From a bacterium (GTDB taxonomy: Bacteria; Babelota; Babeliae; Babelales; CAIQNR01): a stretch of DNA of 41,434 bases. The stretch spans positions 1 through 41,434 of the forward strand of contig CANNBR010000001.1 in NCBI GenBank assembly GCA_947502805.1, given 5' to 3'. Of this stretch, positions 2,071 to 39,639 are shown in pieces (the stretch's first letter is position 1; every line of letters starts with the position of its first letter). The notes under the pieces were generated by a model. That model was not told the DNA's origin. It did no database searches and worked only from the letters and a program-made list of their open reading frames with translations. The position numbers and the translations under genes are program-made.

Positions 2071-2801
2071 TTTCTGAATTAGATACAACAACCTTACTTG
2101 CTCGAGCAGAGTATGATCATTGGTGGTTTCAGTCTCGGCGGGCAATTATGGAGCAGCTTTTTTGGAAAACCCTGTCATCCTCTTCTTCTTCAAAAGATAT
2201 AAAAATCCTTTGCGTTGGTTGTGGAACTGGGTCAGAGCTTGAGCACGCAGCGAAATTTGGGCAGGTAACTGGTGTTGATATAGATCCTCAGGTTATTGCG
2301 TTATGTAAAGAAAAAGGGTTGAACGTTATCCAGGCTGATATTTTAGACACATCATTACCGCAAGAAAGTTTTGATGTTGTGATGGCGATGGACGTTATTG
2401 AACACATTGAAGATGATCATAAAACAGTACAAGCATTATCAGCGCTTCTTAAAAAAGGGGGGCATCTTTTGGTGACTGTTCCGGCACTTCAATGTTTGTG
2501 GAGTAGTTTTGATGAAGAGGGAGATTTCCCTCACTTTCGACGCTACACAAAAAAAACATTGAGTACGTTATTGCTTTCGCAGCCTCTAAAACGAGAAAAG
2601 TTAAGTTATTATAATTTTTTTCTTTTCCCAGCAGCATTCTTAGCGCGTAAAGCAAATAGCTCTTTTGCGGCTCAAATGACCGTTCCTTCTGGATGGAAAA
2701 ATAATCTTTTACGAACACTATTTAGTTTTGAAAAATATTTTTTGCCCTGGATGTCGTTTCCTATAGGTGTTTCACTCGTAGCCATTTATAAAAAGCAGTA
2801 G
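2067..2801 (+). CDS. class I SAM-dependent methyltransferase
   Basis: ATG 2067 overlaps the upstream TGA (ATGA). It has motif I ILCVGCGTGSE and DVVMAMDVIEHIED. The ORF track start at 2043 is an alternative. Confidence 0.75.
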   Translation: MISELDTTTLLARAEYDHWWFQSRRAIMEQLFWKTLSSSSSSKDIKILCVGCGTGSELEHAAKFGQVTGVDIDPQVIALCKEKGLNVIQADILDTSLPQESFDVVMAMDVIEHIEDDHKTVQALSALLKKGGHLLVTVPALQCLWSSFDEEGDFPHFRRYTKKTLSTLLLSQPLKREKLSYYNFFLFPAAFLARKANSSFAAQMTVPSGWKNNLLRTLFSFEKYFLPWMSFPIGVSLVAIYKKQ

Positions 2802-2805
2802 TTCT

Positions 2806-3750
2806 ATGAAAAAACTATCCTTTGTTATCCCTGTGTATAACGAAGAAGGGAATCTTCCTGTTCTTTATGAAAAGCTTAAAGCGATTTGTGATCATTTTGC
2901 TCAGAAATATAGTTTTGAGATTCTTTTAGTTGATGATGGAAGCACTGATAGCTCGTGGCAGATTATAAAAGAGCTAGTAAGTAAAGATTCTCGAGTGCGA
3001 GGGTTTTCATTTAGCAGAAACTTTGGGTTTCAAATGACTCTTACTGCTGCGTATGATCACGCACAGGGAGATGCTATTATAGGATTAGATGCTGATCTGC
3101 AAGATCCACCAGAACTGATTTATGAAATGATAGAACGGTGGGAGCAAGGTTTTTATATTGTCTATGCGCGCCGTAGCTCCCGTAATGATGGATTTGTAAA
3201 AGACTTTACCGCTTCGCTTTATTATAAGCTTTTACATTATGTTGCTGACGTTCCTATTCCACAAAATGTGGGGGATTTTAGGCTTATTGATAAGCGAGTA
3301 TTGCAACAAGTAAGGTTGTGTCGTGAACGAGCCCGTTATTTGCGAGGCATTGTTGCATGGACCGGATTTAAACACACTTATGTAGAATTTAAAAGGCCTG
3401 AAAGAGTAGCAGGGGTATCGGGATACAGTTGGTTAAAGCTTTTTAAATTGGCTTTTGATGGTGTAACTGCTTTTTCACTGTTTCCCTTAAGGATAGCAGC
3501 TTTTGTGGGTGTTTTTGTCATTTTTACCGGTTCATTAATGTTTGCTTATATAGCCTTTGATGCTTTTGTTCATGGGGCACGGTACCCCCTTTTTAAATGG
3601 TTAGTAACGGTGGTTTATATTTTTATGGGAGTTCAATTTTTGTTGATGTGGCTCCTTGGTGAATATATTGGACGAATATATGATCAGCAAAAAAACAGAC
3701 CGCTTTATATTATTCAAGAAAGCATAGGAAAAGGTTTTGAGGAGAAATAA
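2806..3750 (+). CDS. GT2 polyprenyl-phosphate glycosyltransferase (ArnC/GtrB/DPM1-like)
   Basis: 314 aa with FVIPVYNEEGNL, VDDGSTDS and DADLQDPPE. These are followed by C-terminal TM helices and GEYIGRIYDQQKNRPLYII. Confidence 0.85.
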   Translation: MKKLSFVIPVYNEEGNLPVLYEKLKAICDHFAQKYSFEILLVDDGSTDSSWQIIKELVSKDSRVRGFSFSRNFGFQMTLTAAYDHAQGDAIIGLDADLQDPPELIYEMIERWEQGFYIVYARRSSRNDGFVKDFTASLYYKLLHYVADVPIPQNVGDFRLIDKRVLQQVRLCRERARYLRGIVAWTGFKHTYVEFKRPERVAGVSGYSWLKLFKLAFDGVTAFSLFPLRIAAFVGVFVIFTGSLMFAYIAFDAFVHGARYPLFKWLVTVVYIFMGVQFLLMWLLGEYIGRIYDQQKNRPLYIIQESIGKGFEEK

Positions 3751-4910
3751 TGGATATAATGCCGTGTCGTTTGGAACTTTTTAATGAAACCATCGCTGCT
3801 TTCAAAGCAACGGGTGTACTTTTACTGCGAATCCTTAATGGAATGCTTGCTCCTTTAGAACAGGGGTATGGCGGAGATCCTGAGATCTATCCTTTTGTCC
3901 CCGTACTGGTTGATTGGTTTCACCTTTCTTTGGATCAGGCTATTTGGTGGACGTATGCAGTCTTTATCGGTCTAGGTAGTGCAATAGCGATTACTGGGTT
4001 TTTGAGGCTGTGCACAGATTGGGTAAGTCGAACTATTACAGTTATTGGTGTGCTTGGAGTTGGGGCTGTTTGTTATGTTGTGTATGACATTTACTTAGTT
4101 TCATTTTTTGCTCTTTGCTTTGTTCCATGGCTTTTTGCATTGCTTTCAGAGAAGAAGATTTTGCCTTTAGCTTTGTATTGCCTGATCGCTGGATTTGTAA
4201 TGGTTGGTGTTAATTTTTTGCGACTTCATACGGCTACTGCGCTAGGGCTTGTGGTTGTGACTACGGTAGTGCTGTATTACAGGTGGTCGGTGCGAGCAGT
4301 AGTTTTATTGTTGTGCTTTGGGTTGGGAGCAGGGGTAACTTTTTGGGGAATTCAGAAATCTCTTGAAAGTAGAAATGCCTATCTTGATACTCATGGCATT
4401 GAGCATGGTTCCACTCGAGTATCACACACATTTTGGCATAATATTTACGCAGGTCTCGGTTTTGTAACAAATGATTACGGTCTTTATTATAGCGATAGTT
4501 GCTCTGTTTATAAGGTAAGAGAGGTCGCTCCAGAGGCAGTCTATCTTTCTGATGAGTATGAAAATACTTTACGTGATGAGATTATAAAGCTTTGTAAAAC
4601 GCATCCTCAATTTGTACTCAAGACCCTTTTTGCAAAGTGCGGAATCTTACTTTACTACTTGCTAATGTTTGCCAACATTGGGTTATTGTGCGCATGGTTT
4701 TATCGCAAGCCTTGGTATTTAGAAATTCCGTATTGGTTTGCTTTATGGTTTAGCGCGCTCCCTGGGGTAGTAACCGTTCCCGTAGCCCCTTACCTCACCG
4801 GTTTTTTTACCGCGGCAACGTTCTACGGGATCCATTCAATCATTTGGGCGCTTCAACATGGGTTGTATGATAAAATTGCCTTACGTATTCGCCGATTAAT
4901 GAGTAAATAA
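3750..4910 (+). CDS. polytopic inner-membrane protein of unknown family (candidate GT-C-like glycan transferase or polymerase by context)
   Basis: 386 aa, hydrophobic helices throughout, and the start overlaps the GT2 stop by 1 nt. I can name no diagnostic motif, so the functional guess rests on context only. Confidence 0.5.
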   Translation: MDIMPCRLELFNETIAAFKATGVLLLRILNGMLAPLEQGYGGDPEIYPFVPVLVDWFHLSLDQAIWWTYAVFIGLGSAIAITGFLRLCTDWVSRTITVIGVLGVGAVCYVVYDIYLVSFFALCFVPWLFALLSEKKILPLALYCLIAGFVMVGVNFLRLHTATALGLVVVTTVVLYYRWSVRAVVLLLCFGLGAGVTFWGIQKSLESRNAYLDTHGIEHGSTRVSHTFWHNIYAGLGFVTNDYGLYYSDSCSVYKVREVAPEAVYLSDEYENTLRDEIIKLCKTHPQFVLKTLFAKCGILLYYLLMFANIGLLCAWFYRKPWYLEIPYWFALWFSALPGVVTVPVAPYLTGFFTAATFYGIHSIIWALQHGLYDKIALRIRRLMSK

Positions 4911-4918
4911 AAAGTCCT

Positions 4919-5172
4919 GTCATCCCCAGAGAGCGAAGTCGCAGCAGTGCAAAGCACTGGCTAGACTGAGTGAACGGTATGGGGACCCAGACGTAACTAG
5001 AAAAAATCATAATTTTTTTAATCTTAAAATCAAAGATGGTTAATCTGTGCTAAACGGTGCAAATAGAATGTTTTGAATTATGAGGACTTTGTCTTGTTAC
5101 GTCTGGATTCCCGTACCGTTCAGTCGCTTGTCCGCGCATTCGCACGTGACAATCTCCTTCTCTGGGAATGAC
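4919..5172. repeat. MITE-like nested palindromic repeat, type A, full copy (A1)
   Basis: The left arm is 4919-4997 (gtcatccccagagagcgaagtcgcagcagtgcaaagcactgg...ccagacgtaac) and the right arm is 5096-5172 (gttacgtctgg...ctctgggaatgac). They are imperfect inverted copies around an AT-rich core. The left arm is about 57% G+C by my count (45/79), far above its flanks. Its apical hairpin is cagtgc-aaa-gcactg. Confidence 0.85.
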
Positions 5173-5188
5173 TTCGAGAAAAATGAGA

Positions 5189-5887
5189 TTATTTGTTCGA
5201 CGTCTCTTTCTTTAAAAAAGTAGCGTAAAGCCCGCCAAGAGGTACTTTTGTTAGGAATTTTTCGGTGCATCTAAATCCACGCAAAAAGTGGGGGAAAAAG
5301 CTGTAAAACTTGAGCGTTGGCGAGCCATATTCTTTTAAAAGATTGCGTGCATATAAAGGGTTGAGCATCTTTGCATTCTTTTCAATAGGGCACGTATTAA
5401 AAATGTACTGTGTTCCTGGGTTAAAAGGATTGAGTTCAAAAAGTATCAACACCCCATTTTTACTGAGGACTCTATGAAGGTCTTGAATGTACCCGGCATG
5501 TTCGGCAAAAGGAATGTGATGGAAAACTCCTGCTGCAAAAATCACATCGAACTGTTCATCTTTAAAACACGAAACATCAGCTCCTGAAACTTTAAAGGTG
5601 ATGTCGGGATGATTTTTTTGTGCAACTTTAATGCTTTCTGGTGAAGGGTCGCAGCCAAAGAGTTTAGTTTTTGGAAACTGTTTTTGTACTTTTTCTGTCA
5701 TCAAGCCATCGCCGCATCCAAAATCAAGAATGGTTTTTGGAACACCTTTAAAAAATTCAGGCAACCATTCAGCAGGTTTTTGAGTTTTTTAGACGGTAAA
5801 AAACTCACTTGATTCTCCTGTTGCATTGAGGTAATTATCTTGGTCTTTTCGATATTCTTTTATGTAATCGTCAAATTCTGCTTTCAT
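5189..5887 (-). pseudogene. class I SAM-dependent methyltransferase interrupted by an in-frame TAA
   Basis: ATG at 5887-5885 follows a strong RBS (aaggagaactcATG) and opens MKAEFDDYIKEYRKDQDNYLNATGESSEFFTV. A TAA at 5791-5789 is followed in the same frame by KTQKPAEWLPEFFKGVPKTILDFGCGDG..., which is ORF-track 5189-5764 (a TTG pseudo-start with no RBS). 5887-5764 = 123 = 41 codons, so the two parts are in frame. Confidence 0.7.
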
Positions 5888-5987
5888 GAGTTCTCCTTTT
5901 TTATGGTTAGAAATTATGACTTTTTCTTCACAATCATTCCTAAGTTCTGTTTAGTTTTGAACCCGATCTTTCTATTTTAGGCTTGCG

Positions 5988-6229
5988 CTCGTCGTCCTCA
6001 GCAAGGCGAAAGTCGCAGCGGTGTATTTTAATGCACCGACCAGACGAAGCGAGCGTAAGGATCCAGAAATAAATTACACCAAAGTCATCATAATTTATCT
6101 AAAGAAATGGATTATTCAGGTCATTTCTAAAATGATTTTTGTGCAATTATCCTGGATCCTTACGCTCACTTTGCCTAGACAGGGTACCGCGTACCCTGTC
6201 TAGGCTCTCGTATCGCTGAGGACGACGAG
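5988..6229. repeat. MITE-like nested palindromic repeat, type B, full copy (B1)
   Basis: It has perfect 15-bp termini (ctcgtcgtcctcagc at 5988-6002, gctgaggacgacgag at 6215-6229). It also has a perfect inner 16-bp inverted repeat (gagcgtaaggatccag / ctggatccttacgctc) and an AT-rich core. The termini resemble type A (gtcRtccYcag). Confidence 0.85.
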
Positions 6230-6274
6230 TGGGAGGGCTATGTTAATTTTAAGATAAATTTTTAGGTTGCCTTT

Positions 6275-7519
6275 CTATTTTTCGTACACAGGGAATTTTT
6301 TACATAGTCGGTGCACTTGTTCTGCTAAACTATTAAGCGCATGGATATCGGTTCGTTTTTGTAAAGCATCGTGAATAATCTGCACCACTTCTTCAGTTTC
6401 TTCTTTTTTAAATCCGCGGCTAGTGATAGCAGGGGTTCCAACTCTAAGGCCACTGGTGATCATCGGTTTTTGAGGATCAAACGGAATGCAGTTGCGGTTA
6501 ACTGAGATACCAATGCTTCCAAGAAGTTCTTCAGCTTCTTTGCCGGTGATATTTTTGCTACGCAGGTCAATGACCATTAAATGGTTTTTCGTTGAGCCTG
6601 AAACGATACGGTAGCCAAGGGAAGTAAAAGCATCTGCCATGGTCTGTGCGTTTTTGATAATCTGTTTTTGGTAAGTTTTAAATTCCGGTTGGAGCGCATA
6701 TAAAAAGCCGACCGCTTTGGCTCCGATTTGTTGCATCAATGGTCCACCTTGGAGCCCTGGCATAACTGCTTTATCAAGTCGTTGGGCATATGGTTCTTTA
6801 CACATGACAAGGCCACCGCGAGGTCCACGTAATGTTTTATGGGTGGTACTGCTGACAAAATCCGCATGTTTGATGGGGGAAGGGTGAAGTCCGGTGGCAA
6901 CAAGCCCTGCAATGTGGGCAATGTCGGTCAGTAAGAATGCCCCTACTGATTTGGCAATCGCTGCAAACTTTTCAAAGTCGATGATTTGTGAATACGCAGA
7001 AGCGCCACAGACAATAATCTGCGGCTTATGTTCAAGGGCAAGTTTTTGAATTTCTTCGTAATCAAGATGTTCAGTATCTCGATTAACTCCATAGTTAACA
7101 TTTTTGTAAAAGGTACCGGAAAAATTTATTGGGTATCCATGGGTTAAGTGTCCGCCTGCTGCAAGGTTCATGCCAAGAATAGTATCGCCTGGTTTGAGCG
7201 CTGCAAAATAGACCGCCATGTTTGCCTGTGACCCTGAGTGGGGCTGCACGTTTACATGTTCAGCACCAAAGAGTTGGGCGCAGCGTTGGCGAGCGAGGTC
7301 TTCAACTTCGTCCACATAGACGCATCCACCGTAGTATCGTTTTCCTGGGTAACCTTCTGCGTATTTATTGGTCAAAATGGAGCCGCTTGCTTCAAGCACT
7401 GCAGGCCAGGTGTAATTTTCAGACGCGATAAGGTCTATAGTTGTTTCGAGCCTGTTTGCTTCGTGTTCGATGATTGTTGCTACCGCAGGATCTATGTGGT
7501 TTAGGCTTGTTCTATTCAT
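6275..7519 (-). CDS. glyA: serine hydroxymethyltransferase
   Basis: 414 aa with [33 protein letters not shown] and [12 protein letters not shown]. Confidence 0.95.
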
Positions 7520-7534
7520 TTTTGACTCCTTTGT

Positions 7535-7577
7535 GTCATTCCCAGCTTGCTATCGCAAGCAGTAAGGGAATCTTTGG
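7535..7577. repeat. mini-hairpin repeat related to the type A terminus (copy 1)
   Basis: The sequence gtcattcccagcttgctatcgcaagcagtaagggaatctttgg has an attccc/gggaat outer stem and a gcttgc/gcaagc inner stem. Its 5' and 3' ends match 24453-24492. Confidence 0.7.
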
Positions 7578-7605
7578 TACGTCTAAAGAGTTTTTTTCTC
7601 CACCC

Positions 7606-7830
7606 GTCATCCTCAGAGATAGAAGGCGACCAGGCACGTAGTGCAGTGGTTGCCGACTGAACGTACGGGGATCCAGGCGTAACAAGAAGAAATCATAATT
7701 TTTAATCTTAAAAATGGATAGTCCATACAAAAAATAAATAAGAGGACTTTGTTTTGTTACGACTAGGTCCCCGTACGTTCAGTCGATTATCCCGCATTCG
7801 CATGAGATAATCTCCTGTTTCTGGGGATGA
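7606..7830. repeat. MITE-like nested palindromic repeat, type A, full copy (A2)
   Basis: The left arm is 7606-7683 (gtcatcctcagagat...ccaggcgtaac) and the right arm is 7756-7830 (gttacgactagg...tttctggggatga). The right arm aligns closely with the A1 right arm. The core shares aaatcataattttt..aatcttaaaa and gaggactttgtYttgttacg with A1. Confidence 0.85.
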
Positions 7831-7950
7831 TGGTAAAATTTGGATGCTTGTGAAGGATCTTTTTATAAACACAGCGCTAGTCTTCGTGCTTGTTAAAATA
7901 AAGTAACGCTAGCTCGATGACGCCCCTAGGCGTAGATGGGCGATGGACGA

Positions 7951-7978
7951 TTGCTTTTTATGATGAGCGTTTTATACT
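7951..7978 (+). promoter_or_regulatory. candidate sigma70-type promoter for efp-nusB
   Basis: TTGCTT (7951-7956), a 16-nt spacer, then TATACT (7973-7978), about 50 nt upstream of the efp ATG. The efp RBS is aaggag. Confidence 0.4.
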
Positions 7979-8026
7979 GATGGATACGTCTTTTCGCTCA
8001 AAAATTTAAGGTAATAAGGAGACCAG

Positions 8027-8587
8027 ATGATATCAGCTACAGATTTCCGTAAAGGTACAAAGGTTTTATTGCGGGATGAGCCGCATGTTGTGATGGATTT
8101 TCAACATAATAAAATGGGCCGTGGTGGTGCATTAGTACGCGCTAAGCTCAAAAACTTGATTTCCGGTTCAACATTTGAAGAAAACTTTCGCTCGGATCAA
8201 AAATTTGCAAACCCTGATCTTGAACGCAGATCTATGAAGTATCTTTACTGTGATGGAGATCTTTATAATTTCATGGATGAGGAAAGCTACGACCAAGTGT
8301 CACTCAATAAAGAAAATTTGGAAGATGTTATTGGCTATTTAAAAGAGCAAGAAGTTTATGAAATGCTCTTTTTTAGAGAACGACCTATTGGGGTAACTCC
8401 GCCACTCTTTATGGTTTTGGAAGTCAAAGAAACTCCTCCTGGTGTCCGTGGTGATACTGCTCAAGGTGGGGCAACCAAGCCAGCATTGTTAGAAACAGGG
8501 GTAACAGTACAAGTTCCTTTGTTTGTTAACGAAGGCGAAAAAATTAAAGTCGACACTCGTGATAATACGTATATTGAACGCGTCTAA
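8027..8587 (+). CDS. efp: elongation factor P
   Basis: 186 aa aligning end to end with E. coli and B. subtilis EF-P (GDTAQGGATKPALLETGVTVQVPLFV, KVDTR..YIERV). The loop reads HNKMGRGGALVRAKLKNL, with Arg32 where the others have Lys. Confidence 0.93.
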   Translation: MISATDFRKGTKVLLRDEPHVVMDFQHNKMGRGGALVRAKLKNLISGSTFEENFRSDQKFANPDLERRSMKYLYCDGDLYNFMDEESYDQVSLNKENLEDVIGYLKEQEVYEMLFFRERPIGVTPPLFMVLEVKETPPGVRGDTAQGGATKPALLETGVTVQVPLFVNEGEKIKVDTRDNTYIERV

Positions 8588-9138: not shown

Positions 9139-9945
9139 CAGCCTTTTTCTAGACTCAAATGAAACCATACACCCATGATCTTTAACCAAGAAATGCTCAA
9201 CTGCTTGTTCGATATATTCAATTGGTGCGGTAGTAACAAAATGAATATGAGATATATCAGTCCTTTCAGTGAAATTAAGCAATGAATTTGCAGCGTTTAC
9301 AAAGGTAATATGTGGAGCTTGATCCTCTAAAAGTTTTTGAATAAAGGGATAATGAGTGCACCCAAGAATGATCGTATCAACATCAGCGGTAAGCAGTGGA
9401 GTTAGATATTCGTCAATAGCTGTTTGGCATTCTTGAGGGGATGCTTTTCTTTCGATAAGCGTAACGAAATCGGGGCAAGGCTGTTCGATAAGGGTGGCGC
9501 TAGTATTGATAGTGATGATGACCGCTTCACTAAGTAATCTTTGATGTATATGGGTATTTATCGTTGCTTGTGTTGCCATGACCCCAATTCGATTATTTTT
9601 TGTAACCGCAAGAGCTCGATCAATAGTGAGGGGAAGCAGGTCTACATAGGTTATATGCGGAAACAGTTTTCTTAATGATGCAACTGCTGTAGCGCTTAAT
9701 GTATAGCAGGCAACAAAAATGGTAGTGATGCCTAAGCTTTCAAAAAAACAAGTAATAGCGATTCCCCGATTAATAAGAAATTCTACGGTCTTTTGTCCAT
9801 AGGGAAGATGTGCTGCATCAGCGAAATAGACAGTTTCTTGAGGAAGAAAGGGAATAAGTGCATTTAATACAGAAAGACCACCAACGCCCGAATCAAGCAT
9901 GCCTATTTTTTTAGGAAGCATTAGCTTTGATAATTGTTTTTTCAT
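9136..9945 (-). CDS. murI: glutamate racemase
   Basis: 269 aa with MLDSGVGGLSVL, VACYTLSA and ILGCTHYPF. Confidence 0.9.
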   Translation of the reverse strand: MKKQLSKLMLPKKIGMLDSGVGGLSVLNALIPFLPQETVYFADAAHLPYGQKTVEFLINRGIAITCFFESLGITTIFVACYTLSATAVASLRKLFPHITYVDLLPLTIDRALAVTKNNRIGVMATQATINTHIHQRLLSEAVIITINTSATLIEQPCPDFVTLIERKASPQECQTAIDEYLTPLLTADVDTIILGCTHYPFIQKLLEDQAPHITFVNAANSLLNFTERTDISHIHFVTTAPIEYIEQAVEHFLVKDHGCMVSFESRKRL

Positions 9946-10805
9946 TGTTTTCTACTTCGTGTTTCTGCATAAAGATTAATAATTTGTTTGATATAGGCCT
10001 GGTCTATTGCAAAATCTTTTTCTTTTTCTTCCGCAGTGTAGGGCGCCGCAGTAAAGAACGGAGTTTCTTTGCTCTTTGTATCAAGGTGCAAACAGTAACT
10101 TCCTTTTTCTGTAAAGAGCGTGTGGAGAAAGGGGAGTTGTATGATTACATCTGCACTTCGTAATGTTTCGTGCCAAAGGCCCTCATTATTTTTTTTCACC
10201 GGAAGATTATAAATATGAGGAGCTTCAGGAAGCATTCTTTCAAAAACAGTAAAGACTGGCTGAATAAAGTCTCCATATGAAAAAATATGATAGATAGCAT
10301 CAATAGAATTACATGCTTTTGGATACCAGTCAGTATATACCGGCATGCCAAGGGTAAAGAGTTCTTTTATGCGGATATTATTGAGTTGTTGATCTATCAT
10401 CATTTGTACTGCAAGAAGTACAACAGTACCACCATGGCTGTGGGCAATAATATGAGTGGTATGATATTTGTTTATGCTTACTAGTTGTAAAAGTTCTTGT
10501 AATTCTTGTGCTGCTTTTATTCGTGCTTGGTGATTGTTAGAGCTTGACCACAGAAATGAATTGATGGTGTGTGGTTTGTTTTGAGTAGTGAGGAATTTAG
10601 ACAAAGCTTCGTAACCAGAGCCACCTTTTTTATACCAGGGTATTATTCGTGCAAAAGTACCATGAATAATAATCCAATGTTCAACTTGTAAAGAAGAAAG
10701 GTAGGGAGAATTTTGAGGCCTATGCGTTTCGGTTCTTATTTCTGAAAAAGAAAAAAGGCCAAAAAATAAGGAGAAACAGTATAAAATACGAATAACGTAA
10801 TTCAT
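9942..10805 (-). CDS. secreted alpha/beta-hydrolase, lipase/esterase-like
   Basis: 287 aa with an N-terminal signal-like hydrophobic segment and an IIHGTF oxyanion-type segment. The nucleophile elbow IIAHSHGGTVVLL resembles AHSMGG of B. subtilis LipA. It overlaps the murI start by 4 nt. Confidence 0.6.
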   Translation of the reverse strand: MNYVIRILYCFSLFFGLFSFSEIRTETHRPQNSPYLSSLQVEHWIIIHGTFARIIPWYKKGGSGYEALSKFLTTQNKPHTINSFLWSSSNNHQARIKAAQELQELLQLVSINKYHTTHIIAHSHGGTVVLLAVQMMIDQQLNNIRIKELFTLGMPVYTDWYPKACNSIDAIYHIFSYGDFIQPVFTVFERMLPEAPHIYNLPVKKNNEGLWHETLRSADVIIQLPFLHTLFTEKGSYCLHLDTKSKETPFFTAAPYTAEEKEKDFAIDQAYIKQIINLYAETRSRKQ

Positions 10806-10849
10806 GCAGTTTCTCCTTATTTTTTTAATTCAAATGTATGCGTTAGTTC

Positions 10850-13072: not shown

Positions 13073-13601
13073 TAATGACTCCTGGGGAGAATAATAACCC
13101 GTTATTTCAAGAACTGAAAAGGCGGGGTTAGAGGTTTGTGAAAAAATAATAACAGATCAAAACTAGCATTATAATAGGTATTAGGCAACTCAGAGCCAAT
13201 TTTTAGATAGTTAAGGTAAGTTAATAATAGTGAGCTAGCGAGCTTTTTTTGGAGTCAAAGAAAGGAAGTTTTTGATTTAGCTTAGGCCTAATGTATGGGA
13301 TAACTGTGGTCTTTACTTAAAGAAATGAAATTGAGTCCTAGAAAAAGTTATTTTATTAAAGTTTTAAAATTCATATATAGATTTAATTGGTTTTTTTAAA
13401 AGAAAATAAATTTATTTTTTATTAAAAACATTGACAGAGGTTTGTTTTTTTATTTATTTTTTCAATATTAAAAAAATTCTATTTGAACTGTTGCTATTCG
13501 GAAAGAGGGGCTGATACTATTGTTTATGAAAGGTAGGCGAGGTGCTTACCTGAATATTCTAAGGTCCTGCTAAAATATTGCGGACTATAAAGGAGACGGA
13601 A

Positions 13602-14066
13602 ATGGAAAAAAAACTAAACATCGCGTTGTTAGTAGTTGCTGTTGCGTTTGGTCAAAATGGGGTGTGTGCACGTTCTTACGTTAAAACTCAGCTACAGCAT
13701 GATGCGGCCGTCGCAGGAATAACTTCTCTTGTTGCGGCTGTAATTGCAGGTGATTATTCAAAAACAAAAGCTCTTTGCGATGGTGGTACTGATATAAATG
13801 AAAGGAGAGATAAATATACTGCGCTTATGCATTCAATAAGACAAGGTAATTTGCAAATTACTACTTTACTTAATGAACGCAAAGCTACAATCAACAACGA
13901 TGATATTCAAAAGGTTATAGTAGAAAGTGTTGACAGCCCGCAACGTGATGCATGTGTTAAAGCTGTTTTAGATGTTAATCCTGGACTTGTAATAAAAACA
14001 GGTATGGGTGAAACTAATCAACAGAGTTCTACAGAGGCGGTTTTGGCTAGGCATAAAGGCCAGTAA
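13602..14066 (+). CDS. signal-peptide ankyrin-repeat protein
   Basis: ATG 13602 is preferred over the track start 13578 because of the RBS aaggagacggaaATG. MEKKLNIALLVVAVAFGQNGVCA is signal-like. Two ANK-like repeats follow (SLVAAVIAGDYSKTKALCDGGTDINERR and DKYTALMHSIRQGNLQITTLLNERKATINNDD). Confidence 0.65.
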   Translation: MEKKLNIALLVVAVAFGQNGVCARSYVKTQLQHDAAVAGITSLVAAVIAGDYSKTKALCDGGTDINERRDKYTALMHSIRQGNLQITTLLNERKATINNDDIQKVIVESVDSPQRDACVKAVLDVNPGLVIKTGMGETNQQSSTEAVLARHKGQ

Positions 14067-21761: not shown

Positions 21762-22223
21762 TTATATGCCAGGGGAGATAGAGCTAAATCCTCTTTCTGC
21801 TAACTTATTATCAAGCGCTATGCGATCTTCAAGCGCTATGCGATCTTCAAGCGCTATGCGATCTTCAAGTGTTTTTTTAAATTGTAGGGCAAGATTATTT
21901 CTATCTTTTTCTGCTTTAAATGAAAGAAGAAAGCCTGACACTTGTAGTATTTTTTCTTTAAAATGAGGAGTTATTTCTTTGTTAAGAGCAAAAATTAATC
22001 TATTCTTATCTAGGTCATTCTCTCTAAGAATCGTTACATTTACTAAATATTCCATACCTTCTAAAAATGAGACAGTTGAAATTCCTTTAGGGGATTCTTC
22101 TTTAAGAAATAGGTCCACCAATTCATGTGCATTTTCTGCAAAGCATTTATTTCTCTCTTCTATATAAGAGCCATATGTTGCTGTGGTAGCGGTTAGTAAT
22201 AATAAACTGATAATTTTTTTCAT
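21762..22223 (-). CDS. hypothetical secreted protein with a tandem EDRIAL repeat
   Basis: 153 aa with a signal-like N-terminus (MKKIISLLLLTATTATYG) and LEDRIALEDRIALEDRIAL near the C-terminus. Confidence 0.55.
   Translation of the reverse strand: MKKIISLLLLTATTATYGSYIEERNKCFAENAHELVDLFLKEESPKGISTVSFLEGMEYLVNVTILRENDLDKNRLIFALNKEITPHFKEKILQVSGFLLSFKAEKDRNNLALQFKKTLEDRIALEDRIALEDRIALDNKLAERGFSSISPGI
21811..21869. repeat. 18-bp perfect tandem repeat, 3 copies plus 5 nt, in-frame within the CDS
   Basis: The unit tcaagcgctatgcgatct occurs at 21811-21828, 21829-21846 and 21847-21864, followed by tcaag. Confidence 0.9.
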
Positions 22224-22336: not shown

Positions 22337-24445
22337 ATGAAAAAAAATGTATTTTTATCTATACTAATTGGTGGATCTCTTGGGTTTTTGTTAGCCCATA
22401 AAGTTCCCTTATCAAAGGAAAAAATAACTATGAAGTGTGATATTCAAGAATATAAAAATATAAACACTGTTGCATTAGCTTGTTCGGTGTTTCCAAAAAC
22501 TTCTCAGGAAATTATTGAGCGTTCAGACAGGGCACAAAAAACAGCTCTCGAAAGCATTAATGTGCTTATTGCGCTCTCTCCAGAAAATTATAGTCAAGCA
22601 ACGGTGCTACAAGGGTTCGATAGGTTAAAGGCTCGGATAGGATCAGAATTATCTATTCTTGGGTTAGTAAAATCGGTCTATCTAGAGCAAGAAATGCTTG
22701 ATACTGCAGAAAAACAATTTGTGCTTTTGAATCAATTTATTATTGAACATATCGATAGTAACGGCCAGATTTACCAAGTATTTAAGGCATATCAGATGGG
22801 GGCTGCCCATAAAGAAAATCTTACAGAAGATGATCATTATTTCTTAAACAAAGTACTAGAAAATTTTGAGTTACAAGGGTTGAATCTTCCTGCAGAAAAA
22901 CAAGAACAGGTGCTTGCTCTTAAAAAACAGTGCGCACAATTAGAGTCTGAATTTCATCGCCTCATTGATCAAGATGCAACCACTATAAAAGTTTCTGAAG
23001 AAGCGCTTGTAGGTATTCCAGAAGATTTTAAGAAAACATTGCAGCATGATAGTGATGCCTATGTTTTACCGATGAACTATCCGGTTCAATCAATGGTTAT
23101 GAATTATTGCTCTGTTCAGGAAACGCGTAAACAGTATTCAAAGGCTTTTAGCAATAAAGCCTACCCTCAAAATGAGTCAATTTTACAAGAAATTATACGC
23201 ATACGAGATGAGTTCTCAAAGCTACTTGGGTATGAAAGTTTTGCTTCGTATGATTTAAAAACTCAGATGATTAAAACTCCTGAACGTGCATGGGACTTTG
23301 AAAACGATCTGCAAAAAAAAGCGTTAATTGCAGCAGAAAAAGACTTTAATCAATTAGTAGGGGATCTTCCAGAAGGAGTTTCTTTAACTAAGGATGGAAA
23401 GTTGGATCCTTGGAATTTTGGCTTTGTGAATACCTATTTTAAGAAAAAATATTACTCAATTGATGAGCAAGTTTTTGCAGAATATTTTCCTATGGAAAAA
23501 ACAATAGCAGGGCTTATTGGTATCTATGAAAAATTCTTTAATTTGAGCATTGAGCCTGTTGTGGTTACTGGTATGTGGCATTCTGATGTTCGCCTTTTGC
23601 AAGTTAAAAACAGGGCTGATGGCGCATTATTAAGTTATATTTTTTTAGATATGTTTCCGCGAGAAAAAAAATACGGGCATGCAGCAGCTTTTGAGGCTGT
23701 TTTAGCAACTAAAAAAGATGATGGAACGCGTACTCCGTCTGTTGTTACCTTGGTGTGTAATTTTACTAAGCCAACAGCAGAAAAACCTTCATTATTAAAA
23801 TATTCAGAAGTTACTACATTCTTCCATGAGTTTGGTCACGCTATTCATGTAACTTTAGGAGCAACTAAATATTATGCTCTGTCTGGGTTTAATACGGAAA
23901 TTGATTTTGTTGAGTTGCCTTCACAGATGCTTGAAAACTGGATGGAGAATAAAGAGATTCTTACCATGATTAGTTCTCATTATAAAACAGGAAAATCTTT
24001 ACCAGAAGAGCTTATTGAAAAACGTCTTGAACTTCTAAAGTTTGGCCAAGGTATTTTTGTAGCGAGTCAACTTACTCTTGGCATGATTAGTTTAGAGCTT
24101 TTTGGACCGCACCATACGGAGTCTTTGGCTGATACCTATAAACGTTTTTCCGAACTTAATTCTAAGTATCTCGCGTATGATACAGATACTCATCGTTATT
24201 GTTCTTTTGGACACCTTACTGGCTATGGCCCTAAATATTATGGTTACCTGTGGTCATTAGTACTTGCTTACGATGTGTTCGAGCAGATTGAAAAAGAAGG
24301 CTTGCTAAATTCAGAAGCAGGTAGAAAATATTCTGATGCAATTCTTTCCTGTGGTGGAAGCAAAGATGCAAATGATATGTTACGTGACTATCTAGGACGC
24401 GAACCTCGCTTTGATGCTTTTTATAAAAAAATGGGCCTTGAGTAA
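22337..24445 (+). CDS. M3-family zinc oligopeptidase (thimet oligopeptidase / Dcp / oligopeptidase A type) with an N-terminal membrane anchor or signal
   Basis: 702 aa with an HEFGH zinc motif (TTFFHEFGHAIH), a downstream E (VELPSQMLENW), and a hydrophobic N-terminus. Confidence 0.85.
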   Translation: MKKNVFLSILIGGSLGFLLAHKVPLSKEKITMKCDIQEYKNINTVALACSVFPKTSQEIIERSDRAQKTALESINVLIALSPENYSQATVLQGFDRLKARIGSELSILGLVKSVYLEQEMLDTAEKQFVLLNQFIIEHIDSNGQIYQVFKAYQMGAAHKENLTEDDHYFLNKVLENFELQGLNLPAEKQEQVLALKKQCAQLESEFHRLIDQDATTIKVSEEALVGIPEDFKKTLQHDSDAYVLPMNYPVQSMVMNYCSVQETRKQYSKAFSNKAYPQNESILQEIIRIRDEFSKLLGYESFASYDLKTQMIKTPERAWDFENDLQKKALIAAEKDFNQLVGDLPEGVSLTKDGKLDPWNFGFVNTYFKKKYYSIDEQVFAEYFPMEKTIAGLIGIYEKFFNLSIEPVVVTGMWHSDVRLLQVKNRADGALLSYIFLDMFPREKKYGHAAAFEAVLATKKDDGTRTPSVVTLVCNFTKPTAEKPSLLKYSEVTTFFHEFGHAIHVTLGATKYYALSGFNTEIDFVELPSQMLENWMENKEILTMISSHYKTGKSLPEELIEKRLELLKFGQGIFVASQLTLGMISLELFGPHHTESLADTYKRFSELNSKYLAYDTDTHRYCSFGHLTGYGPKYYGYLWSLVLAYDVFEQIEKEGLLNSEAGRKYSDAILSCGGSKDANDMLRDYLGREPRFDAFYKKMGLE

Positions 24446-24452
24446 AATCAGT

Positions 24453-24492
24453 GTCATTCCCAGTGATGCAAGGAGCGGTAAGGGAATCTTGG
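24453..24492. repeat. mini-hairpin repeat related to the type A terminus (copy 2)
   Basis: gtcattcccagtgatgcaaggagcggtaagggaatcttgg shares gtgtcattcccag...gtaagggaatctt(t)gg with 7533-7577. It starts 8 nt after the peptidase stop. Confidence 0.7.
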
Positions 24493-28769: not shown

Positions 28770-29300
28770 TTATAGTTGTACATTCGATACTTGCCACGGC
28801 TCACTAAAGTTAAGATGAATATCTTCTAATCGCTCATGATGTACCAAAAAATAAAAAGATGATGCAGTGCATCCTTGTTCTTTATAGCTTTTAATAAGCG
28901 CATTGATAAAAGATTCTTTATGGTGAATTGACCAGTTTTTCTCAAAAGGATTGTGGTCAAAAGAAGTGTATATTTCATAGCCAGAAGGGGAAAAGAGTAC
29001 GCTTTCAACCATTATTTTTTTTGAAAGTTCTTGTTCATCTTCAAGCCATGCAAGCCAGGCAGTAGTTAAAAGTTTAAAATTTGCATTCTGATTTTCTGAC
29101 CAAAGAACTTGAAACGATTCTTTAATAAAATTGCTGTCTTTTTCTCTCCACAATGTGATGTTTTTTTTCTCAATAATGGGAGTTGTTTGTGTTTGATAGG
29201 ATGGTTTATTCCAATAAATAATCAGCCATTCTTGGTAGGTGCAGAAGAAGATGAGGCCGGCTAGGAAGCTGATAGCCAGGATGACAGTTTTATTGTTCAT
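28770..29300 (-). CDS. hypothetical membrane-anchored protein
   Basis: 176 aa with a single N-terminal TM (VILAISFLAGLIFFC). No family is assigned; a GerM-like fold is only a guess. Confidence 0.5.
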   Translation of the reverse strand: MNNKTVILAISFLAGLIFFCTYQEWLIIYWNKPSYQTQTTPIIEKKNITLWREKDSNFIKESFQVLWSENQNANFKLLTTAWLAWLEDEQELSKKIMVESVLFSPSGYEIYTSFDHNPFEKNWSIHHKESFINALIKSYKEQGCTASSFYFLVHHERLEDIHLNFSEPWQVSNVQL

Positions 29301-29314
29301 AGGGGCTTTTTCCC

Positions 29315-29394
29315 GTTACGTCTGGATACCCCGACGCTCACTCCATCTAGCCAGTGCTGTGCACTGCCGCGACTACCGTACCGCTGGGGACGAC
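29315..29394. repeat. solo arm of the type A repeat
   Basis: gttacgtctggataccccgacgctcactccatctagccagtgctgtgcactgccgcgac...ctggggacgac aligns with the reverse complement of the A1 left arm, including the hairpin cagtgc-tgt-gcactg. It is bracketed by tcccgt / acggga. Confidence 0.8.
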
Positions 29395-29451
29395 GGGAAC
29401 TTAGGAAATCTTTTACGATATTTACTCTCTGAGAGAGGCGATAGATATTCT

Positions 29452-36859: not shown

Positions 36860-37394
36860 AGCAGGACTTTTTCTTTCTCGGCGTTATGCACAAGCTTATC
36901 TTGGGGTATCGTATCATCTTCTTGTTCCCGATCATGTTGCTGCATTCGAATCGGCGCATGTTTTTTTTAAGAAGCATCAAACAGCGTGTTTTTTGATGGA
37001 TTTAACTTTGCTTTCTCCAGAGGTAAAAGAAAAGGCGCTCATAGATCTTATTGAGCGGTTTAAACTTCCATCATCTTGTTATGCATTAATGTGTTTGGTA
37101 ATAGCGCATCACCGTACCTCATTACTTGCTCCTATGTTTCATCAGTTAGCAGATTTGTATCAAAAGCGGGCTGGAATTATAACATTTTTAGTACAAAGTT
37201 CAGTGGCTTTATCAGAGCAAGAAAAAACATTGATAGAAAATTTTTTAAAAGAACAGGTATCTGTAAGGGTGTATTGTTCTTACGAGCTAAACCCAGAGCT
37301 TATAGCTGGTGTGCGTATTTTTAATGAACAGTATTTATGGGAATATTCTGCTCAGGCTCAATTACGAGCGCTGTATACTAGCGTACGACGCTGA
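36852..37394 (+). CDS. atpH: F0F1 ATP synthase subunit delta (OSCP)
   Basis: 180 aa with a GTG start. The N-terminus reads RRYAQAYLGV and the C-terminus reads ELNPELIAGVRIFNEQYLWEYSAQAQL, which fits the delta pattern (IGG..i.....iD.S....L). Confidence 0.75.
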   Translation: MDRAGLFLSRRYAQAYLGVSYHLLVPDHVAAFESAHVFFKKHQTACFLMDLTLLSPEVKEKALIDLIERFKLPSSCYALMCLVIAHHRTSLLAPMFHQLADLYQKRAGIITFLVQSSVALSEQEKTLIENFLKEQVSVRVYCSYELNPELIAGVRIFNEQYLWEYSAQAQLRALYTSVRR

Positions 37395-37401
37395 GGTTTT
37401 T

Positions 37402-38913
37402 ATGAAGATAAAAAGTACCGATCTTGTTTCTCTTTTTGAAAAAGCTTTACATGATGGGCCACAAGAAAATTTAGAAGAGATAGGCATTGTTGTTCAAGTG
37501 GGGGATGGCATTTGCCGTGTTCATGGTCTTGAACGAGCAGTGTATAACGAAATTGTTGAATTTGATGAAGGCAATAAAGGGATCATTCTTGATCTTGATG
37601 AAAGCTATGTCTCTGTTTTTCTTTTGTATGCCAACATTCCCGTTGTTGAATTAGAAGTAGTTAGACGTACTGGGCATGTGTTTAAAACTCCTGTAGGCAT
37701 GAATCTTCTTGGTCGTGTGATAAATGCAACTGGAGCACCACTGGATGGTCTAGGTGATTTGAATGCAGAAGCTGTAGCGCCGATAGAAACATTTGCGCCA
37801 GGGGTTATTGAACGTAGTCCGATTAATGAACCATTACAAACAGGTATTCTTGTTATTGATGCCTTAGTACCAATTGGTAAAGGTCAACGAGAGTTGATTA
37901 TTGGTAACAGAAATACAGGTAAAACAGCGGTTGCGCTTGATGCCATTCTGAATCAAAAAGGTAAAAATGTTTTCTGTATTTATGTTTCGATTGGTCAACG
38001 CCAAGCAAATCTAGCACGCGTTATTCAGTTGTTAAGTGAAAACGGAGCCCTTGAATACACAGTAGTAGTAAGTGCTGATTCAAGTGACGCAGTGTTATGC
38101 CAATATCTTGCTCCTTATGTTGGTTGTACGATTGGTGAATACTTTAGAGATAGAGGTCACGATGCTCTTATCGTCTATGATTCTTTAAGTAATCATGCGA
38201 TTGCGTATCGAGAAATGTCTCTCTTGTTGCGTAGGCCGCCGGGGCGTGAAGCGTATCCAGGCGATGTGTTTTATCTTCATTCACGATTATTAGAACGTGC
38301 AGGTAAACTTGCAAAAGGTGGTTCGTTAACAGCGCTTCCTATTATTGAAGTACAGTCAGATGATATCACTGCCTACATTCCAACGAATCTTATTTCCATC
38401 ACTGATGGTCAAGTATTCCTTGATGATCAGTTATTTAAAAGTGGCATTCGTCCTGCGGTGAACATTGGTCTTTCTGTTTCTCGTGTTGGTGGAGCAGCGC
38501 AAACTCGTGCAGTGAAAAAAATGGCAAAGACCTTAGGTCTTGAACTTGCTCAGTATCGTGAACTTTTAGACTTTTCTCAGTTTGGTACTGATCTTGATAA
38601 AGAAGCACAACGACGTCTTGCTCGTGGACAATGTGCCACGGAAGTGCTTAAGCAGGGTCATTACACCACGTATAACTTTGTTCAAGAAGCGTTGATGCTT
38701 TTTATTTTGCAAGAAGGTTTTTTGCATGATGTCGCACTTCCTACTATTCAAGCATTTGTTACACAGTTTGTAAGTTACGTTGAATCTGTCTATCCAAAGG
38801 TGTATGGCACTATTTTAGAATCAACCGATGTATCTGATCAGATTAAAACCGAGCTTATTGCCATAGCAAAAGAGTTCAAGATTCTTTTTGTGGCTCCTGA
38901 GTTGGTTGGCTAG
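37402..38913 (+). CDS. atpA: F0F1 ATP synthase subunit alpha
   Basis: ATG 37402 has RBS gagg and begins MKIKSTDL. The track start 37309 would overlap atpH. It has Walker A GNRNTGKTAVALD, DSLSNHAIAYREMSLLLRRPPGREAYPGDVFYLHSRLLERA and ITDGQVFL. Confidence 0.93.
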   Translation: MKIKSTDLVSLFEKALHDGPQENLEEIGIVVQVGDGICRVHGLERAVYNEIVEFDEGNKGIILDLDESYVSVFLLYANIPVVELEVVRRTGHVFKTPVGMNLLGRVINATGAPLDGLGDLNAEAVAPIETFAPGVIERSPINEPLQTGILVIDALVPIGKGQRELIIGNRNTGKTAVALDAILNQKGKNVFCIYVSIGQRQANLARVIQLLSENGALEYTVVVSADSSDAVLCQYLAPYVGCTIGEYFRDRGHDALIVYDSLSNHAIAYREMSLLLRRPPGREAYPGDVFYLHSRLLERAGKLAKGGSLTALPIIEVQSDDITAYIPTNLISITDGQVFLDDQLFKSGIRPAVNIGLSVSRVGGAAQTRAVKKMAKTLGLELAQYRELLDFSQFGTDLDKEAQRRLARGQCATEVLKQGHYTTYNFVQEALMLFILQEGFLHDVALPTIQAFVTQFVSYVESVYPKVYGTILESTDVSDQIKTELIAIAKEFKILFVAPELVG

Positions 38914-38960
38914 ATTAGACTGATTTTTATAGTAAAGATTAGTGTAGAAGAAACCTTTTA

Positions 38961-39059
38961 CTCGTCGTCCTCAGCGGTACGAGAGCTGCGGCAGCGTGCG
39001 TAGTACGGTGCTAAGCGAAGTGAGCATGAGGATCCAGGATAATTGCACAAAAATCATTA
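38961..39059. repeat. solo arm of the type B repeat
   Basis: ctcgtcgtcctcagcggtacgagagc...aagtgagcatgaggatccaggataattgcacaaaaatcatta aligns with the reverse complement of the B1 right arm (ctcgtcgtcctcagcgatacgagagc...aagtgagcgtaaggatccaggataattgcacaaaaatcattt). Confidence 0.85.
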
Positions 39060-39078
39060 TAGTGAGGCATTTTCAGCG

Positions 39079-39639
39079 ATGAATAAAATAAAAGCAATTC
39101 TTATTCCCGGCAACGGGGATAGCTCGCCTCAGGATAATTGGCTTCCTTATGTTAAAGCGGAGTTAGAAAAAAGAGGCCTTACCGTTTTAGCCCCACAATT
39201 TCCCGATACACCGATTTGCAGAGAAAAGTACTGGATTCCTTTTTTAAAACAATTGGGAGCGGACGAGAGTACCATACTTATCGGGCATTCAACCGGAGCT
39301 ATCGCGGCAATGCGGTTTGCAGAAAACAATAAGATTTTAGGTTCGGTGCTTGTTGGTTCGTATCACAGTGATCTTGGCATGGAAACTGAAAAATTAAGTG
39401 GCTATTTTGACCGTCCTTGGAACTGGGAAGCTATCAAACAGAATCAATCCTTTATCATTCAATTTGCATCTACTGATGATCAGTGGATTCCCATAGCAGA
39501 AGCGCGTGCTGTGCATAAAAATTTGAACACTGAATATTACGAATTTACTGATAAAGGCCATTTTATTGGCCGTTGTTATAACCCAACTTTTCCTGAATTG
39601 GTGGAAGCGGTTAGTAATCAACTTATGGTTCTACGGTAA
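39079..39639 (+). CDS. alpha/beta-fold serine hydrolase, YdeN/RBBP9-like
   Basis: ATG 39079 (MNKIKAILIPGNGDS) is preferred, because the track start 39043 lies inside the repeat arm. The nucleophile elbow is LIGHSTGA and the length is about 186 aa, as in this family. Confidence 0.7.
   Translation: MNKIKAILIPGNGDSSPQDNWLPYVKAELEKRGLTVLAPQFPDTPICREKYWIPFLKQLGADESTILIGHSTGAIAAMRFAENNKILGSVLVGSYHSDLGMETEKLSGYFDRPWNWEAIKQNQSFIIQFASTDDQWIPIAEARAVHKNLNTEYYEFTDKGHFIGRCYNPTFPELVEAVSNQLMVLR

Follow-up and report, generated by a model that had tools for sequence, protein, structure and literature searches.

Miniature inverted-repeat transposable elements with exchangeable hairpin arms in an uncultured Babelales lineage, and their likely IS5-type driver

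Introduction

What are the GC-rich, nested palindromes that occupy the spacers between the housekeeping genes of an uncultured Babelales bacterium, and how did they come to be there? We address this question for contig CANNBR010000001.1 of GenBank assembly GCA_947502805.1 (GTDB lineage Babelota; Babeliae; Babelales; CAIQNR01). The whole stretch of 41,434 nt, which we call the window, has a G+C content of ~38%, and its housekeeping genes are glyA, efp, nusB, leuS, uvrB, atpA, ndk and the gene for ribosomal protein S1. [quoted passage not shown] All seven are present as it described them, and profile and pattern searches recover them far beyond chance. We consider it probable that they belong to a lineage-restricted MITE family moved by an insertion sequence (IS) of the IS5 type, that the window copies are decayed relics of this family, and that its interior consists of exchangeable hairpin modules.

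Eight hairpin arms and two mini hairpins in the window

A search with a profile built from the arms themselves identified exactly eight GC-rich hairpin arms of ~80 nt in the window (E-values between 3e-20 and 4e-8); the best match that was not an arm had an E-value above 1. The arms form three full two-arm elements, A1 (profile matches at 4919-4997 on the plus strand and 5096-5172 on the minus strand), B1 (5991-6072, plus; 6147-6226, minus) and A2 (7606-7683, plus; 7757-7830, minus), together with two solo arms (29316-29394, minus; 38964-39042, plus), and two mini hairpins complete the set. A strict arm pattern matched three times in the window, against 0.00 matches expected from shuffled sequence, and the only GTCATTCCCAG...GTAAGGGAAT units outside the arms are the two minis, matched at 7535-7571 and 24453-24487. 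The richness in G+C that had been attributed to the arms was borne out, their G+C fraction being 0.49-0.63 against ~0.38 for the window.

Elements of this family are 190-330 bp long, and the inner inverted termini of the window copies read GTCATYCCCAG/CTGGGRATGAC. The predicted fold of a full copy is a three-branch cruciform with an outer stem, a long central stem and, at the sides, two hairpins; its free energy (dG) lies between -108 and -129 kcal/mol and its z-score between -9 and -15. We found no transposase among 30 scanned open reading frames (ORFs) of the ~40 non-nested ORFs of at least 80 aa in the window, and Rfam at gathering thresholds returned only tRNAs from the window and eight related loci. 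Small ORFs that can be read from the A cores (TTG after GAGGAC) do not keep their frame between A1 and A2.

The repeats are insertions that differ among close relatives

Close relatives were identified through their glyA homologues, and their contigs provided the orthologous spacers. In the window, the spacers between efp and glyA, between glyA and a methyltransferase gene, and between the methyltransferase gene and the gene for a 386-aa protein measure 507, ~370 and 278 bp. In the same order they measure 135, 264 and -27 bp in L007 (glyA 95%), 159, 25 and 6 bp in P0003 (glyA 94%) and 164, 26 and -4 bp in L010 (glyA 85%); with L009 included, the efp-glyA spacer of these relatives is 135-164 bp long. 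The alignment with L007 leaves a clean gap at base level that corresponds to window 4871-5175 and is thus an empty A1 site. Clean empty sites of this kind in close relatives reveal the polymorphism in position that mobility predicts, and we conclude that the window repeats are insertions.

Other relatives carry different arrangements at the same sites. L008 has both A1 and B1 at the window positions, with the core of its A1 deleted and with the interior of its B1 left arm of the A1-right type. The B1 site of L007 holds a different element, GTCATTCCCAGAG...CTCTGGGAATGAC, and the glyA-efp spacer of L018 contains two arms in another arrangement. At the MurJ/ABC junction the two genes overlap in L019, and an arm is present in L020 and L022-L024. 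Copies elsewhere are plentiful: two further arms lie on L019, an 18-kb contig of the same sample, and dozens (more than 40) occur in related metagenome-assembled genomes (MAGs) and metagenome contigs. Arm density is ~0.1-0.2 per kb, which by rough extrapolation amounts to some hundreds per genome. We found no arms in L009, L010 and L011 (glyA 85-86%), each covering 21 kb.

Intact copies and a candidate autonomous element

In relatives the repeats also occur as intact units of ~330 bp, in which GAGCTTATCCGAAAATTAAT, a linker, an arm, the core, a second arm and a second linker are followed by the inverted terminal repeat. The 20-nt terminal inverted repeat GAGCTTATCCGAAAATTAAT is found at both ends of the copies in L003, L006 and L014, and the flanking triplets are TTA/TTA in L006, TAA/TAA in L014 and, imperfectly, TTA/TAA in L003. 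One MAG, CAZQDJ01, carries the ~330-bp unit at three loci that are 98.9-100% identical to one another, and one of these copies is nested in the core of another A element. For the L006 copy we found no empty site, L013 being non-syntenic on that side.

Next to the arm termini, remains of the outer repeat and its linker persist in A1 (left) and B1 (right, 6243-6261) in the window, and in copies of L005, L007, L008, L015 and L017. Because A1 and B1 retain these remnants, the element boundaries drawn earlier were too narrow: the A1 insertion spans 4871-5175 and B1 extends to ~6262. The earlier observation that copies have no transposase inside and no clear target-site duplication holds for the window, but not for the young copies in relatives. 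On the best reading, the window copies are older relics that no longer have intact ends.

A candidate for the autonomous element lies in L013 (11727-11845), where a TTA triplet is followed by a terminus identical in 26 of 26 nt to the right end of the MITE. No arm comes next, but the 3' part of a minus-strand ORF that ends in WLRGLKTCWAKTMESSLGFLQLACSIRLLKMI and has its stop codon inside the terminal repeat. In NCBIfam this 32-aa ORF end matches only the IS5 family transposase model NF033580, over positions 232-257 of its 258-position profile (E = 0.005). Pfam gave no match to the 32-aa piece, and a homology search with the X-padded peptide returned no candidate. The L013 contig ends 147 nt after a RING gene, inside the IS, as expected for an IS present in many copies, and the IS is absent from the corresponding site of the sister contigs L022, L023 and L024. 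The proposal of a MITE-like mobile family is thus supported by insertion polymorphism and by the terminal repeat, the target duplication and the candidate autonomous IS of the relatives. Each of the three outcomes that were to count against the original prediction, namely a lack of copies elsewhere, a match to a described family and fixed positions in all relatives, turned out the other way.

Hairpin formation in the arms is under selection

We aligned 36 distinct arms on a conserved frame that consists of GTCRTYCCCAG, an inner stem, an apical hairpin, GAGTGAACG and GGGRAYCCAGRCGTAAC. In this alignment 93% of the consensus stem cells are paired, compared to 77% when columns are shuffled and 20-50% when the partners are slid against each other. 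Changes on both sides of a pair occur in 74 cells (23 +/- 4 in shuffles), and 10 of the 12 stem pairs include a compensatory change. Apical stems are hypervariable yet complementary: the 36 arms have 28 different ones, which fall into about a dozen sequence classes, and the fold z-score lies below -2 in 29 of the 36.

Modules are also exchanged between copies. B-type termini with A1-right-type interiors occur in L008 and L019, and since outer stems recombine with interiors, types A and B, which had been treated as separate, are not clean classes. A stretch of ~130 nt that takes in the B1 core and inner right arm (6070-6200) is 96-100% identical to L008, compared to ~85% for the flanking coding DNA, a pattern suggestive of gene conversion, of a recent exchange or of selection. 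As the stems covary strongly and are mosaic between copies, we conclude that hairpin formation is under selection.

Predicted RNA folding favours the strand that runs from GTCAT to GTAAC, which folds 4 kcal/mol better than its complement (p = 1.6e-5), and G-U pairs outnumber A-C combinations in the consensus stems by 33 to 10. Since many arms are related by descent, this asymmetry and the G-U excess are only suggestive that one particular strand folds. The favoured strand is symmetric relative to the ends of the element, a symmetry that would be more easily reconciled with action in cis during transposition than with a function in one transcript.

In L018, the region 2645-3411 contains a complete 172-aa RibD_C gene (dihydrofolate-reductase-like) downstream of nusB, bracketed by an inverted pair of arms that share one subtype and by ~16 nt of inverted core ends. 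The corresponding position of the window is a spacer of 50 bp.

A MITE probably moved in trans, and its decay

The intact element is a long imperfect palindrome in which GAGCTTATCCGAAAATTAAT, an A/T-rich linker and a GC-rich hairpin arm of ~80 nt lead to an AT-rich palindromic core, after which arm, linker and terminal repeat follow in inverted form. Its movement in trans would be the work of a DDE transposase, encoded elsewhere in the genome by an IS5-family IS that shares its termini, and each insertion would duplicate a 3-bp TWA target. The insertions now in the window have lost one or both outer ends and decayed into full-arm pairs, solo arms and minis, and recombination or gene conversion after insertion may have exchanged modules and left the arms mosaic. 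Selection would keep the hairpins foldable, most likely because they act in cis while the element propagates. Consequences for the host, among them new C-termini, changed spacers and untranslated regions that contain stem-loops, are probably side effects, and nothing indicates a dedicated host function.

Several observations weigh against this explanation. At up to three mismatches, the window contains no match to an intact outer terminal repeat, nor do its copies show a clear 3-bp duplication; the junctions of A1 resemble a degenerate duplication of ~9-10 bp (GAKAAAAWTG) rather than TWA, and even among the young copies only two of three have a perfect target duplication. The assignment to IS5 comes from a 32-aa fragment at an E-value of 0.005 and from one terminus, and the GAG ends and 3-bp duplication would fit the IS1031 subgroup of IS5 (ISfinder), a lead rather than a test. 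The identity of the B1 core, higher than that of its flanks, is better accounted for by selection or by recent exchange than by a neutral relic. Finally, solo arms and minis show polymorphism by themselves, so the arms could be independently mobile or recombining and merely ride in an IS5-type MITE.

Comparison with known repeat elements

IS5-derived bacterial MITEs, of which the eukaryotic Tourist/PIF-Harbinger MITEs are an analogue, resemble this family: they are small, non-coding, multicopy and intergenic, have IS-type terminal repeats and TWA duplications in young copies, and are polymorphic for presence and absence. They differ in that the interior here is not a simple deletion remnant but two exchanged GC-rich hairpin modules of ~80 nt, and in that the parent IS is known here from one terminus only. 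In mobile insertion cassettes, as in L018, inverted repeats flank a passenger gene; the RibD_C case is the single instance of such cargo here and has no outer terminal repeats. Rickettsia palindromic elements offer a parallel to A1, which replaces a host C-terminus in frame, as QMITEs (see below) also do, but the coding overlap here comprises ~12 codons at the end of an ORF, unlike an internal in-frame insertion.

The QMITE1 and QMITE2 elements of Coxiella burnetii are structured MITEs with long palindromes, 150-400 bp in length with folds of -85 to -190 kcal/mol (Wachter et al. 2018, PMC5896051). QMITE1 generates duplications of 2-4 bp (WW, SS or GAAG) and QMITE2 of 7-11 bp, and QMITE2 is a target of IS1111 with a GTAG REP (repetitive extragenic palindrome; PMC5896051). 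Both families consist of long, very stable palindromes in full-size and truncated, REP-like forms, overlap ORF ends and reside in a host-associated bacterium. The TWA duplication separates our elements from QMITEs, a distinction drawn from the published description rather than from sequence; the Coxiella genomes in our species scan (see below) contain no match to the strict arm pattern.

Alternative explanations

If mobility were a thing of the past, the hairpins could now function in transcripts, where they would stabilise mRNA, provide sites for its processing, or serve as attenuators or as insulators between genes. Every copy is intergenic, and co-transcription is predicted for most of them: mini 1 belongs to the glyA leader, mini 2 closely follows a stop codon, and each solo arm is located between genes of the same direction. 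The covariation with G-U tolerance on one strand and the conservation of the B1 core far above its flanks would suit such a role as well, and there is a precedent in the small RNAs that arise from Coxiella QMITEs (PMC5896051). However, the repeats are without an Rfam match, consensus scans of 4800-8100 detected promoter-like and terminator-like sites no more often than in shuffles, and the arms have no T-tails. The two arms of an element also have opposite orientations, so that one transcript would carry just one of them in the favoured sense. Because close relatives with the same genes have the sites empty, an essential regulatory role tied to these genes can be set aside, and we regard a function as structured RNA as unlikely.

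On another reading, the arms are no passive cargo but strand-specific hairpin modules of single-stranded DNA or RNA that are selected, exchangeable and possibly mobile in their own right. The conserved frame would present a variable apical stem for recognition, in the manner of REP or attC sites, by a putative hairpin-binding enzyme, and the IS5-type ends would be one vehicle among others. We likewise hold this to be improbable; if it were true, such units could bracket and move host genes, as the RibD_C gene of L018 illustrates.

A REP is an imperfect palindrome of 20-40 nt with a conserved 5' GTAG and a cognate REP-associated tyrosine transposase (RAYT). Applied to our repeats, this model would make the ~80-nt arm the mobile unit, cut and pasted as single-stranded DNA by an HUH/Y1 transposase (RAYT or IS200/IS605); two-arm elements would be doublets of the REPIN type and the IS5-type ends incidental. 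As with REPs, bacterial interspersed mosaic elements (BIMEs) and REPINs, imperfect palindromes occur here both singly and as inverted doublets, their pairing is strongly selected, the apical stems are hypervariable, and arms are swapped between elements. Of the 36 arms, 11 have GGTAG at the base of the inner stem, and the G-U excess (33 to 10) with the 4 kcal/mol advantage of the forward strand suggests that one specific strand folds. The arms, however, are two to four times longer than REPs (75-85 nt), GTAG is not conserved (11 of 36 arms), and the G-U excess is inflated by related arms. We found no Y1 transposase in the Pfam annotation of related contigs that total ~190 kb (L007-L011, L019, L020 and L022-L024) or the 30 scanned ORFs of the window, whole genomes not having been searched. 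In young copies the unit that moves is the whole 330 bp, complete with DDE-type ends, terminal repeats and a target duplication, for which a DDE enzyme suffices without a RAYT, and a REP-like origin therefore appears quite unlikely.

The weakest alternative derives from Neisseria, where dRS3 is a 20-bp unit, ATTCCCNNNNNNNNGGGAAT, with an 8-nt centre, flanking RS segments in arrays of Neisseria intergenic mosaic elements (NIMEs; Bentley et al. 2007, PMC1797815). Repeats of this kind would make spacers hot spots for exchange and cassette capture. The features in its favour are outer stems of the inverted hexamers ATTCCC/GGGAAT, ATCCCC/GGGGAT and similar, flanked here by GTC and CCAG, GC-rich units that alternate with AT-rich or lower-GC ones as in NIME arrays (PMC1797815), mosaic arms, arm arrangements that differ between strains within one spacer, and the inverted arm pair around the RibD_C gene of L018. 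This explanation is very unlikely, since the window has no strict dRS3 unit (ATTCCC-N8-GGGAAT), its ATTCCC...GGGAAT pairs having spacers of 20-51 nt and the loops measuring 20-60 nt; NIMEs come in arrays, which are absent here, and are without IS-type terminal repeats or target duplications, the annotated related contigs contain no IS110/Piv recombinase, and the terminal repeats and target duplication of the young copies indicate transposition rather than site-specific recombination.

Distribution and host lineage

We scanned 185,579 genomes, one per species, with the strict arm pattern and found it in one MAG only, CAZQDJ01 (labelled 'uncultured Pseudomonadota'), although exact patterns of this kind can miss diverged copies. 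In a scan of JGI metagenomes the pattern occurred in seven stretches from two samples. Neither plasmids, searched by BLAST with an intact copy, nor phages, searched with A1, gave anything relevant, and the mini had no match in viral contigs. The family is thus confined to one clade, and no described family matches it in Rfam, plasmids, phages or the literature. Our best reading is that it is a new family of a known element type, the bacterial IS5-derived MITE, that fits REP/REPIN poorly and is not a Neisseria dRS3/NIME.

The best named homologues of Lon are from Babeliales (77%), and glyA homologues include Dependentiae (63-65%). Eukaryote-like proteins with ankyrin repeats or a RING-H2 finger are encoded in the lineage (window 13578-14066; L013 11054-11698; L007 563-3187). 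The ankyrin and RING proteins and the Babeliales-closest Lon suggest a host-associated lifestyle, intracellular in protists, notwithstanding the Pseudomonadota label that the related MAG bears.

A second, unrelated repeat family, with ~48-49% G+C and inverted arms of ~100 nt, occurs in relatives, often beside arms of the first, and is absent from the window and without an Rfam match. It was located at L005 2117-2209 and 2423-2523, L009 14337-14426 and 14722-14826, L012 149-313, L013 3841-4001, L014 1098-1251, L017 10445-10495 and L022 10369-10489; of these, L009 is without the first family. The GC-rich block after the L005 arm was considered as the start of a group II intron, but it has no Rfam intron match and belongs to this second family.

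The window copies and their neighbourhood

None of the three full elements is assigned a strand. The A1 insertion block (4871-5175), delimited by alignment with the empty orthologous site of L007, the arm profile and comparison of its flanks with intact copies, consists of a remnant of the outer-left terminal repeat (~4877-4918), a left arm (4919-4997, plus), an AT-rich palindromic core (4998-5095) and a right arm (5096-5172, minus). Its right outer end is absent, and its predicted fold has a dG of -108 kcal/mol (z = -9.2). A1 supplies the last ~12 codons and the stop of ORF 3750-4910, which encodes the 386-aa protein, and replaces the host C-terminus in frame.

B1 (5988-6262) occupies the spacer that separates the stop codon of glyA from the methyltransferase gene's start and comprises a left arm (5988-6072, plus), a core (6073-6144), a right arm (6145-6229, minus) and the outer-repeat remnant TTAATTTTAAGATAAATTT (6243-6261). 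Between A1 and B1, the class I methyltransferase gene (5189-5887, minus) has an in-frame TAG at codon 33 (FFTV*KTQK). The L007 orthologue is intact and reads FFTIYKTQK, so the window gene is probably a pseudogene, or restarts at the TTG of ORF 5189-5764.

Two copies share the divergent glyA/efp spacer. Mini hairpin 1 (7535-7577, plus) has the structure GTCATTCCCAG-16 nt-GTAAGGGAATC and lies 15 nt upstream of the start codon of glyA, a little beyond the ribosome-binding site; it is missing from the orthologous spacer in L007 and L018. A2 (7606-7831) consists of a left arm (7606-7683, plus), a core (7684-7755) and a right arm (7756-7831, minus), with a predicted fold of -112 kcal/mol (z = -13.2). 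Mini hairpin 2 (24453-24492, plus), located 8 nt past the stop of an oligopeptidase A-like ORF (22337-24445), has a near-identical counterpart in L007 (8732-8796).

The solo A arm (29296-29396, minus) comprises an arm (29315-29394; profile E = 1e-16) and ~20 nt of the core start (29296-29314), a remnant that overlaps the start-codon region of ORF 28770-29300. The solo B arm (38961-39062, plus), an arm (38961-39044) with ~20 nt of a B-type core start, is 90% complementary over 52 nt to the core/arm junction of B1 and lies between atpA and the next ORF. This ORF is not atpG or another atp gene (window 37309-39639), and an ATP synthase beta-type gene is found on another contig of the same sample (L019 14326-15783), so the atp operon appears to be split.

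Two further repeats in the window stand apart from the family. A perfect 18-nt tandem repeat, TCAAGCGCTATGCGATCT, in ~3.3 copies (21811-21869) falls within ORF 21762-22223 (minus), which has no Pfam match. In the spacer between ndk and ORF 9942-10805, an inverted repeat of 30 nt (10761-10825; 87% complementary, 5-nt loop), unrelated to the arms, may be a terminator-like hairpin.

Implications

These data describe a previously undescribed MITE family and its likely IS5-type driver in an uncultured, probably protist-associated lineage. As insertion sites differ among genomes whose glyA proteins are 94-95% identical, the elements could be used as strain-level markers. They are also a likely source of contig breaks in MAGs, given that the end of one contig falls within the IS and that one locus begins within a MITE copy. 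The new C-termini, widened promoter spacers and arm-bracketed gene exemplify how such elements can reshape a compact genome. What goes beyond a routine MITE are the covarying, hypervariable and mosaic arms, which suggest a structural requirement in cis that would be unusual for MITEs of the DDE type.

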